Sequence record: MN882349.1
Strand: one strand, 5' to 3'
DNA: 64,000 bases
Source of the DNA: Escherichia phage Ec_Makalu_003
A program made the position numbers and the translations under genes. Of the stretch, positions 15,922-18,429 are shown one piece after another. The notes beneath the pieces were generated by a model, which saw only the letters and a program-made list of their open reading frames with translations, was not told the origin of the DNA and did no database searches. Numbering within the stretch: position 1 is the stretch's first letter; every line of letters starts with the position of its first letter.

Positions 15922-16320
15922 TTAAGCTAGTCGAGTGAGTTTATAAATTGTTTTAAAGCATAGAATTTTGATATCGTCTAAAACGCTCTGTAACGAGCTA
16001 TCAACATCATTATAAATCTCACTAGCCATTTGCGTTAACTCTTGCAAATAGGCAATTTCGCTAATCTCCTTGCGGACGACCAACGTTGGCTGATAACGAC
16101 CAGTGATCCCAATATTGGTTTCAGTGAAATTATCAACCAATTCTTGCATTTCAAGATAGAACTCTTCTAGAGCCTTATGTTTTGCATAAGATCCAGGACC
16201 AGTTACCCCAAAATGCGCAGAATGCATATAAGTAACACTCATCAGACATTCACCGATAAAGCGGTCAACTTTATTAGCTTTCCCATCTTCGGACGTCTTT
16301 CGAAAATCACTGAATTTCAT
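15922..16320 (-). CDS. hypothetical protein, tentatively ferritin/Dps-like
   Basis: Start reassigned to 'MKFSDFRK' after a GGAGAATC RBS; 'HSAHFGVTGPG..HKALEEFY' resembles the Dps ferroxidase-site pattern as far as I recall it. Confidence 0.3.
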   Translation of the reverse strand: MKFSDFRKTSEDGKANKVDRFIGECLMSVTYMHSAHFGVTGPGSYAKHKALEEFYLEMQELVDNFTETNIGITGRYQPTLVVRKEISEIAYLQELTQMASEIYNDVDSSLQSVLDDIKILCFKTIYKLTRLA

Positions 16321-16609
16321 GTTCTCGATTCTCCACATTATGCAGCATAACAAATTGGTTTGCGGCATATTCCCCCATAATAAAACACTGCTTAGAATCC
16401 ATACATTTACTACGAGCATACATCTTCATAATATGGGCATGAAACTTCTGGCTGGTTTCAATGGAAGGTGATATTTTGTTTACATATACTATCATTGCAC
16501 CGTCGAAATAATCAGTAAAGTCACCAGTTGGATCATATTGATCAGCACTGACACTTCCGACCGCAGTCAAGCATATTGCCGCTGTTAGAGTTTTACGAAT
16601 AAATGACAT
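16307..16609 (-). CDS. exported small protein, rI-like (lysis-inhibition regulator) by position and architecture
   Basis: 100 aa; N-terminal signal or anchor segment; sits next to tk where T4 has rI. Confidence 0.4.
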   Translation of the reverse strand: MSFIRKTLTAAICLTAVGSVSADQYDPTGDFTDYFDGAMIVYVNKISPSIETSQKFHAHIMKMYARSKCMDSKQCFIMGEYAANQFVMLHNVENREHEIQ

Positions 16610-16677: not shown

Positions 16678-17274
16678 TTAGTTGGTAGTGCCATCAATAA
16701 AATGTTTACGGCACACAGAGACATATTTATCCTCTGCACCAACTTCTATTTGAGCACCATCGCGAATAACATTACCCTCTTTATCTACACGAAGGACCAT
16801 TGTTGCTTTCTTGCCACAATGACAAATACCCTTCATTTCGACCAGTTTATCAGCAAATGCCATCAATGCAGCAGATCCTTCAAATAGATTGCCCTGAAAG
16901 TCAGTGCGAAGACCATAACACAGGACAGGGATATTTGCATCATCAACAAGCGCACACAAGCCTAAAACATGCTCTTTAGTCATAAATTGGGCTTCGTCTA
17001 CAAAAACTGCATCTGGACGCCATCGATCCGGTCTACGCTTACCTAACGATTCACGATAAACCAAGTCGAAAAGATCATCCGATTCAGTGAAGGTGATCGC
17101 TGGAGCACTTAGGCCAATTCGGGAAACAACTTCACTTTCTGAATCTCGATTATCAATCGCTGGCTTAAGAATTAATACTCGCATATCACGTTCGGTATAG
17201 TTATAAGCACTTTGTAACAGGGAAGTTGATTTGCCAGCGTTCATAGATGCATAGTAGAAATATAATTGCGCCAT
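16678..17274 (-). CDS. tk: thymidine kinase
   Basis: 198 aa; P-loop 'SMNAGKST'; C-terminal Zn-binding 'CHCGKKA..CRKH'. Confidence 0.9.
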   Translation of the reverse strand: MAQLYFYYASMNAGKSTSLLQSAYNYTERDMRVLILKPAIDNRDSESEVVSRIGLSAPAITFTESDDLFDLVYRESLGKRRPDRWRPDAVFVDEAQFMTKEHVLGLCALVDDANIPVLCYGLRTDFQGNLFEGSAALMAFADKLVEMKGICHCGKKATMVLRVDKEGNVIRDGAQIEVGAEDKYVSVCRKHFIDGTTN

Positions 17275-17567
17275 TAATTAATCTCCAAAAATCCAGCAAG
17301 ACCTAAGCCGATATAAGTCCAAATACAAAGTAAAAAGAAGCAAACACCCATAACAAAGATAAATCCGCGTAGTGTCTTTGGATAACCTACCCAATATTCC
17401 CGACCATCTTCTAACCGGATCAGCTTATTTCCTTGAGAGTCCATATCAATTACAACATGTTTATTTCTGGATTGTAAAAGATATTGCTTGACAATCTCAA
17501 TACCCGCCATAATAACAATAACGAAATTGAAAGTCCACATAACAAGGTTAATGATAGTCTCAAGCAT
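17274..17567 (-). CDS. predicted membrane protein
   Basis: 97 aa; two hydrophobic segments. Confidence 0.5.
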   Translation of the reverse strand: MLETIINLVMWTFNFVIVIMAGIEIVKQYLLQSRNKHVVIDMDSQGNKLIRLEDGREYWVGYPKTLRGFIFVMGVCFFLLCIWTYIGLGLAGFLEIN

Positions 17568-17802
17568 TTTCTATCACCTCCACCCAATCAGGGGTTTCCT
17601 GAAAGACTCCTTCGCCTTCATGATGGTCGCAACCTTTATTGCTGCAATACATCCACCAATCCCACATTCCCCACGGTAAACGCTGCATATCGTCGTTACA
17701 GCAAGTGAAGATGATAGGCCAACCACATCTAACACATCGGCAGTTTTCCTTCATGTGAGCGGTATTAGGCTTCTTCATAGATGACTCCAATATAATCGAC
17801 AT
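17560..17802 (-). CDS. Cys/Trp-rich small protein (putative Zn-binding)
   Basis: 80 aa; 'CRCVRCG..CCND..CSNKGCDHH'. Confidence 0.45.
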   Translation of the reverse strand: MSIILESSMKKPNTAHMKENCRCVRCGWPIIFTCCNDDMQRLPWGMWDWWMYCSNKGCDHHEGEGVFQETPDWVEVIENA

Positions 17803-18005
17803 TTACATGTAGGGCAATGCGGTTCTTTAATATAATACCCGTCTGTCTTTGGAACACTAACAGGAGCGGTTTTTATATTGTATTCAGTGAAACAACGAAA
17901 ACAAGTTACGTTTTCTACAGACTGACGTTTAACCCAATCGCCGGAATATAGATCATTTTTATTTGCCATATTCAACCACCACAATATTGATATCTGGAGT
18001 AGCAA
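17775..18005 (-). CDS. Cys-rich small protein (putative Zn-ribbon)
   Basis: 76 aa; 'CFRCF..CPTCKC'. Confidence 0.4.
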   Translation of the reverse strand: MLLQISILWWLNMANKNDLYSGDWVKRQSVENVTCFRCFTEYNIKTAPVSVPKTDGYYIKEPHCPTCKCRLYWSHL

Positions 18006-18414
18006 TATTAATGATTTCTTCTACGCATTCCCACTCAAGGCCACCGATACCGCAACCGATTTTAGGGATATAGAAAGGCTGTATAGCACCTTCAAAAACA
18101 TCATTGAGAGACTCAAATCCTTTCAGGATAGCACTATATTCAGCATTTGGACCAGGTCGGAATTGGGTATAGAGATTCACCCCGCACCAGTTATAACCAT
18201 TAACTTGATGAGTCCAGACACTAAACCCACCCAGCTTTTCTACCTTACCGCGAGAAGTTTGCTTGTCAATCTCTAACGCTTGCGGGAACTCTTTTGCGAT
18301 ATCCGCAGCAATACCAGCGCCCATAGTATGAAAACAATTACAACCATGAATTAAATGACCGTTTCCTTGTTTAAACAGGGCGATGAGATCGCCCTTTACA
18401 GTATCAATAATCAT
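17959..18414 (-). CDS. macro-domain protein (ADP-ribose binding/processing)
   Basis: 151 aa; 'HGCNCFHTMGAGIAADIAKEFP' and 'IPKIGCGIGGL' match macro-domain core motifs. Confidence 0.7.
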   Translation of the reverse strand: MIIDTVKGDLIALFKQGNGHLIHGCNCFHTMGAGIAADIAKEFPQALEIDKQTSRGKVEKLGGFSVWTHQVNGYNWCGVNLYTQFRPGPNAEYSAILKGFESLNDVFEGAIQPFYIPKIGCGIGGLEWECVEEIINIATPDINIVVVEYGK

Positions 18415-18429
18415 AATATAAACCTCTAA

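Follow-up and report, generated by a model that had tools for sequence, protein, structure and literature searches.

What does a phage gain from a macro-domain protein? The question is raised by a 151-codon minus-strand ORF in the window, that is, the whole stretch of 64,000 nucleotides of Escherichia phage Ec_Makalu_003 (MN882349.1) analyzed here. The original prediction, made from the sequence alone, recognized in this ORF the glycine-rich ADP-ribose-binding motifs of macro domains and proposed that the product could reverse host ADP-ribosylation-based toxicity or degrade ADP-ribose-derived immune signals. The coordinates of the gene, its active-site codons, its neighbors, and its relatives in other sequences are collected in Table 1.

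The gene starts with ATG (18414–18412) and ends with TAA (17961–17959), and the predicted product has a mass of 16.5 kDa and a pI of 5.1. Its AGAGG sits in the 15-nt gap past the stop codon of vs, at the place where a ribosome binding site is annotated in the Makalu_002 record. The protein matches the Pfam Macro profile PF01661 over positions 1–118 of 118 (29.5 bits for a gathering cutoff of 22, E = 7.6e-7) and PHROG 335 (E = 2e-62). It also matches the PADLOC DarG model (53.8 bits, E = 5e-15) and, in the macro (N-terminal) part only, the NCBIfam DarG model NF048014 (51.2 bits, E = 1e-13). The AlphaFold2 model built with a 77-sequence alignment (pLDDT 96.4, pTM 0.91; a single-sequence run, with a pLDDT of only 39, was unusable) displays the three-layer alpha/beta/alpha macro fold, and the best Foldseek match is human TARG1 (E = 5e-11, TM 0.76–0.82, 29% identity). 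In both sequence and structure, the nearest class is ALC1-like/TARG1-like (TARG1, DarG, SCO6735, BT1257, Poa1p), while the MacroD-like, PARG-like, and viral nsP3 classes are more distant. The Pfam and PHROG matches, the predicted fold, and the loop alignments described below confirm the predicted macro domain; the product is a genuine macro-domain protein and belongs to a very common phage gene family.

The gene is not new. Judged by sequence and gene order, it is the Krischvirus (RB49-type) ortholog of T4 tk.4, alias adfM (anti-DarT factor, macrodomain), and it has been named in RB49 and T4 annotation for two decades ("A1pp phosphatase motif"). The RB49 record describes tk.4 as "phosphatase; contains A1pp phosphatase motif", and the window protein is 97.4% identical to RB49 Tk.4, with four substitutions. 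Over the 4 kb around tk.4, the window shares 99.4% identity with Escherichia phage Ec_Makalu_002 and 97% with RB49, two phages of the genus Krischvirus (family Straboviridae). On the minus strand, the order is regB, vs.1, vs, tk.4, two genes for Zn-binding micro-proteins, a gene for a small hydrophobic protein (probably a membrane protein), tk, and rI. T4 has regB, vs.1, vs, tk.4, tk.3, tk.2, tk.1, and tk, so that synteny holds among the window, RB49, and T4. Thymidine kinase is encoded four genes (685 bp) downstream of tk.4 in the same gene string. Thus, of the surroundings originally described, the Zn-binding micro-proteins (PF23895 and PF23903) downstream and the signal-peptide-like Vs and Vs.1 upstream stand, but the claimed separation from nucleotide-metabolism genes does not. 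The N-termini of Vs and Vs.1 that resemble signal peptides are MKKLTVIAMIAMMLSAGALA... and MLKVLKAIVLSLSLAVGATHA..., respectively; an apparently exported "valyl-tRNA synthetase modifier" is odd, and no Pfam match was obtained for Vs.

The genes of this string are closely packed. The 64-aa micro-protein gene, with its ATG at 17969, shares 11 nt (17959–17969) with the 3′ end of tk.4, and the two micro-protein genes (17560–17802 and 17775–17969) overlap each other; such packing suggests translational coupling along the regB–tk string. Expression of tk.4 is probably early or middle, from promoters of this string; one candidate, located ~330 nt before tk.4 near the start of the vs coding sequence, could drive it. 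An 8-bp hairpin, AGGGCGAT-CTC-ATCGCCCT, followed by GTTTAAAC, occurs within codons 7–13 of tk.4 (18376–18394, minus strand); it is labeled a terminator in the Ec_Makalu_002 record and was not called in a terminator scan. Farther along, the rI.-1 ORF (DUF5856; 15922–16419, minus strand) has 165 aa when read from an upstream ATG, as against 132 aa in RB49, and its start codon is uncertain.

Table 1. Positions of tk.4, its predicted active-site elements, neighboring features, and related genes
Feature	Sequence	Positions	Strand	Basis or remark
tk.4/adfM-like CDS	Window	17959..18414	(-)	ORF call; 151-aa stand-alone macro domain
Shine–Dalgarno AGAGG	Window	18423..18427	(-)	Sequence reading; 8 nt 5′ of tk.4 ATG
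Asn26 codon	Window	18337..18339	(-)	Alignment to DarG N22, PhiKZ AdfM N23, SCO6735 N27
Loop 1, M31-GAGIA-36, glycine-rich, phosphate-binding	Window	18307..18324	(-)	TARG1 MGAGIA identical
Thr83-Gln84 codons	Window	18163..18168	(-)	Gln84 aligned at catalytic Lys position
Loop 2, I119-GCGIGG-125, glycine-rich, phosphate-binding	Window	18040..18060	(-)	Alignments to TARG1, DarG
vs (valyl-tRNA synthetase modifier)	Window	18430..18789	(-)	RB49, Makalu_002 annotation; directly upstream of tk.4
vs.1	Window	18797-19387		SLT lytic-transglycosylase domain
64-aa Zn-binding micro-protein	Window	17775..17969	(-)	PF23903 Phage_zn_bind_2, E = 2.5e-23
80-aa Zn-binding micro-protein	Window	17560..17802	(-)	PF23895 Phage_zn_bind, E = 5.6e-34
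tk, thymidine kinase	Window	16678..17274	(-)	PF00265, E = 1e-51
Candidate sigma-70-type promoter, TTGACA-17-TG-TATGAT, 11/12	Window	18752..18780	(-)	Consensus match only; extended -10
Second candidate promoter, TTGACT-17-TATTAT	Window	19450-19422		Between regB and vs.1; consensus match only
Vequintavirus homolog	L007, Escherichia phage AlexBoehm	2501-2959		69.8% identity
Vequintavirus homolog	P0006, EduardKellenberger bas59_0089			~70% identity
Macro + NADAR (PF08719) and/or DUF4326 fusions	P0152, P0205, P0210, P0156			Metagenomic family members

The two glycine-rich loops announced in the original prediction can be assigned to MGAGIA (31–36) and IGCGIGG (119–125), which align with the corresponding loops of TARG1 and DarG; loop 2 continues with L-E-W (compare GGLDW in DarG). 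In the 77-sequence alignment, G34 and A36 of loop 1 and P117, I119, G120, and G122 of loop 2 are invariant. Asn26 is invariant in all 256 family members fetched, and Gln84 is kept in 76 of the 77 aligned sequences and in 252 of the 256. The most interesting residue-level point is this conserved Gln in place of the Lys of DarG and TARG1. Gln84 aligns with K84 of TARG1, K80 of Thermus aquaticus DarG (the catalytic lysine), and K78 of PhiKZ AdfM, but also with Gln85 of SCO6735 and a Gln of BT1257; T4 Tk.4 likewise has Gln at the catalytic-lysine position. This equivalence is indicated by three concordant sequence or profile alignments (HMMER to 5m3i and 4j5r, the family profile to 5e3b and 2fg1, and MAFFT of all) and not by superposition. 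The position of Asp125 in TARG1 is occupied by Gly124, as it is by Gly in DarG.

The stand-alone Streptomyces macro protein SCO6735 hydrolyzes DarT-made thymidine-ADP-ribose on DNA and protects against DarT; both Gln85 and Asn27 are needed, the Q85A substitution abolishes hydrolysis, and the proposed mechanism relies on water and not on a lysine (PMC9411070). Since Gln84 and Asn26 match Gln85 and Asn27 of SCO6735 and are conserved in the family, the Gln-type active site of the window protein is complete, and sites of this type have been demonstrated to process the very product of DarT2. With Asn26 and Gln84 and neither Lys nor Asp in the site, an SCO6735-like, water-mediated catalysis is more likely than the lysine route of DarG and TARG1. 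The Gln-for-Lys site offers a natural test of DNA de-ADP-ribosylation without the DarG lysine.

Which substrate such a site would act on is suggested by the relatives of the protein. In T4, the transposon screen HIDEN-SEQ identified tk.4 as the only gene becoming important on a DarTG2-expressing host, and a clean tk.4 knockout is sensitive to DarTG2; the gene was accordingly renamed adfM, and enzymatic removal of ADP-ribose from DNA was proposed as "likely" from genetics only (bioRxiv 10.1101/2025.11.20.689424, a preprint). This role fits the observation that T4 lacking both adfA and adfN remains DarTG2-resistant (PMC11825919). In the chimallivirus PhiKZ, gp104, independently named AdfM, removes DarT2-made thymidine-linked ADP-ribose from oligonucleotides; the N23A variant is inactive, and the protein protects against two DarTG2 systems (PMC13309987). 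The proposed reversal of host ADP-ribosylation toxicity is, therefore, supported by the genetics of the T4 ortholog. A full-text literature search on AdfM (an acronym shared with unrelated terms) returned only the T4 and PhiKZ papers as relevant. A separate search for direct tests of RB49 or other Krischvirus phages on DarTG2 hosts found none. Phages Bas46 and Bas47 are described as the nearest relatives of RB69, and the Tevenvirinae set was tested against DarTG1 only.

In our view, the tk.4 product is probably a free-standing macro ADP-ribosyl glycohydrolase that counters DarT2 on phage DNA. Orthology with T4 AdfM would imply the same phenotype, and the Gln-type site would make the protein a hydrolase of thymidine-linked ADP-ribose. 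Upon infection, host DarTG2 toxin–antitoxin systems release DarT2, which ADP-ribosylates thymidines of single-stranded phage DNA and blocks replication. The two glycine-rich loops of the macro domain would hold the DNA-attached ADP-ribose, with the distal ribose positioned by Gln84 and Gln84 itself fixed by Asn26; hydrolysis of the thymine–ribose glycosidic bond would then restore normal, replicable DNA. The tk.4 product would act as the phage's own orphan antitoxin. The protection is expected to be mainly catalytic since the DarT-binding domain of DarG is absent (the match covers 2–139 of the 338 profile positions). Against this explanation weigh the low identities to the relatives studied by experiment, 45% for T4 Tk.4 (genetics) and 26% for PhiKZ AdfM (biochemistry), as well as the missing DarG lysine. 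The class, moreover, also acts on protein-Glu/Asp-ADP-ribose, O-acetyl-ADP-ribose, and ADP-ribose-1″-phosphate, a choice of substrate that sequence cannot settle.

By tblastn, homologs of tk.4 occur in 2732 of 50,697 phage records. These come from large virulent phages of many families, with members in Vequintavirus, Felixounavirus, Ackermannviridae, and Pakpunavirus, among others. When 1.84 billion representatives of 50%-identity clusters were searched with the family profile, 17,776 matched at E ≤ 1e-3 and 1294 at E ≤ 1e-30. At least one family member is found alone in a bacterial chromosome, that of Pelagimonas, without darT nearby. Outside Krischvirus, the nearest relatives are in rV5-like Vequintavirus phages, with ~70% identity and an unrelated gene neighborhood. 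Because these copies are closer than T4 Tk.4 (45%), lateral transfer of tk.4 between unrelated coliphage groups is suggested. Two unannotated records, MG065662.1 and MG065664.1 ("Campylobacter phage A142" and "A132"), contain homologs with 67% and 35% identity, values near those of AlexBoehm (69.8%) and of Felixounavirus-type matches (34%–36%); their Campylobacter host labels may be wrong.

Among 10 longer family members scanned, three have a NADAR fusion and two a DUF4326 fusion, one of them with both. NADAR domains remove DarT1-made guanine-ADP-ribose from DNA. The NADAR fusions support a role of the tk.4 family in nucleic-acid de-ADP-ribosylation, and the fused proteins may erase both thymidine- and guanine-linked ADP-ribosylation of DNA. 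In the Krischvirus phage Aragogtheria (OR896826.1, 39632–40075), a homolog of T4 30.3/AdfN, the NADAR anti-DarTG1 factor, occurs with 38% identity ~89 kb from tk.4; in the window, a tblastn search for AdfN/NADAR gave nothing better than E = 0.07.

The Gln-type site also admits a variant of this explanation that we consider possible but doubtful: the T4/RB49-type AdfM would be not a captured DarG but an independently recruited, stand-alone macro domain of the bacterial SCO6735/BT1257 type, with a water-mediated, lysine-independent mechanism, a short acidic substrate loop, and perhaps a substrate range broader than or different from that of DarG. If so, the substrates might include protein or RNA adducts in addition to thymidine-ADP-ribose on DNA, and AdfM might be a general eraser directed against several such defenses rather than a DarT2-specific antidote.

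That the protein processes instead small ADP-ribose derivatives (ADP-ribose-1″-phosphate, O-acetyl-ADP-ribose, or ADP-ribose-derived immune signals or toxins) seems unlikely to us. Its ADP-ribose-1″-phosphate form is the original "A1pp phosphatase" annotation, Poa1p-like and linked to RNA repair, and to this old annotation and the similarity to Poa1p can be added the argument of Iyer et al. (2022) that phage macro domains target mostly small ADP-ribose derivatives. However, the sole phenotype known for an ortholog is DarTG2 sensitivity, the nearest characterized Gln-type enzyme acts on DNA, the NADAR fusions point to nucleic-acid adducts, and no KptA/Tpt1 or 2H partner gene is seen beside tk.4.

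We regard as quite improbable that the product removes ADP-ribose from proteins or RNA, whether by resetting phage Alt/Mod-type modifications or by neutralizing host ADP-ribosyltransferase toxins directed at proteins or RNA. TARG1, the best structural match, is a protein Glu/Asp-ADP-ribose hydrolase, SCO6735 is also active on auto-modified PARP1 (PMC9411070), and Alt is an example of the ADP-ribosyltransferases present in T4-like phages; but the Lys84/Asp125 dyad of TARG1 is replaced by Gln84 and Gly124, and a tblastn search of the window for an Alt-like ADP-ribosyltransferase likewise gave nothing better than E = 0.07. The spread over ~2700 phage records argues, weakly, for independence from T4-specific enzymes. 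Most improbable is a mainly stoichiometric binder that sequesters ADP-ribosylated sites or inhibits DarT2, with hydrolysis secondary or absent, since, even though the catalytic Lys is missing and catalytically dead macro domains of SCO6735, DarG, and TARG1 still inhibit DarT in vitro (PMC9411070), the ADP-ribose-binding and Gln/Asn active-site residues are strongly conserved, as for an enzyme, the protein has no counterpart of the C-terminal domain by which DarG binds DarT, and Q85A abolishes SCO6735 hydrolysis. These last three readings need not be mutually exclusive.

In the window, tk.4 is thus an expected accessory gene, with a counter-defense role already published, as a preprint, for its T4 ortholog. 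Should the anti-DarT2 glycohydrolase be confirmed, DarTG2 would meet an inbuilt antidote in the RB49-like phages, which are frequent components of therapeutic cocktails for E. coli and Shigella, and AdfM together with the distant NADAR/AdfN homolog would point to a layered anti-DarT protection in Krischvirus. With ~2700 phage records and ~17,800 clusters in the family, a single biochemical assignment would annotate many genes now called "phosphatase" or "hypothetical".

Comparison with known macro-domain systems places the protein more precisely. With respect to the DarG (DarG2) antitoxins of M. tuberculosis (5M3I) and T. aquaticus (5M31/5M3E), the window protein ends at residue 151, without the C-terminal DarT-binding domain, and has Gln84 in place of Lys80. 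It scores 51.2 bits for an equivalog cutoff of 250 in NF048014, and no darT toxin gene lies beside tk.4, the neighbors being vs, vs.1, regB, the Zn-binding micro-proteins, and tk. Identity as a DarG antitoxin is, therefore, rejected on the absence of the C-terminal domain, of a darT neighbor, and of the catalytic Lys. In TARG1/OARD1 (4J5R/4J5S), the MGAGIA loop is identical, but Ser occurs where the window protein has Asn26, and a TARG1-type mechanism is rejected because the Lys84/Asp125 dyad is absent.

The Gln-type, ALC1/TARG1-like proteins SCO6735 of Streptomyces coelicolor (5E3B) and BT1257 (2FG1/2AFC) are 23%–24% identical to the window protein, with a G-Q-H motif where the window protein has T-Q. 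Compared with SCO6735, the window protein has a "mobile loop" behind the Gln that is shortened by ~5 residues, without Lys89 and Lys94 (the proposed DNA holders) and with only Arg86 in it; SCO6735 is also basic (pI 9.6), whereas the window protein is acidic. Acidity is, however, no strong objection to a DNA substrate since PhiKZ AdfM, with a pI of 5.05, is just as acidic and yet active on DNA.

PhiKZ gp104 shares with the window protein its structural class, its acidity, the conserved Asn, and the architecture of a phage-encoded stand-alone macro domain. It differs in being only 26% identical, in retaining the catalytic Lys (K78), in being imported into the phage nucleus, and in scoring 132.9 bits on the PADLOC DarG model, far nearer to DarG than the window protein (53.8) or T4 Tk.4 (36). 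These identities and scores suggest that PhiKZ-type and T4/RB49-type AdfM are distinct lineages of one structural class, and PhiKZ AdfM looks like a separate recruitment sharing only the name; Gln84 puts the T4/RB49 type with SCO6735-like enzymes and apart from the PhiKZ type. The closest counterpart among the characterized proteins is T4 Tk.4. Although 55% of the residues differ, the T4 protein (155 aa) is also a full-length stand-alone macro domain, aligned over 149 of the 151 residues (45% identity, E = 2e-45), with the HGCNCFHTMG, NLYTQ, and IGxGIG motifs in common, including the Gln at the catalytic position, and in both phages the gene lies between small tk.x ORFs and vs.
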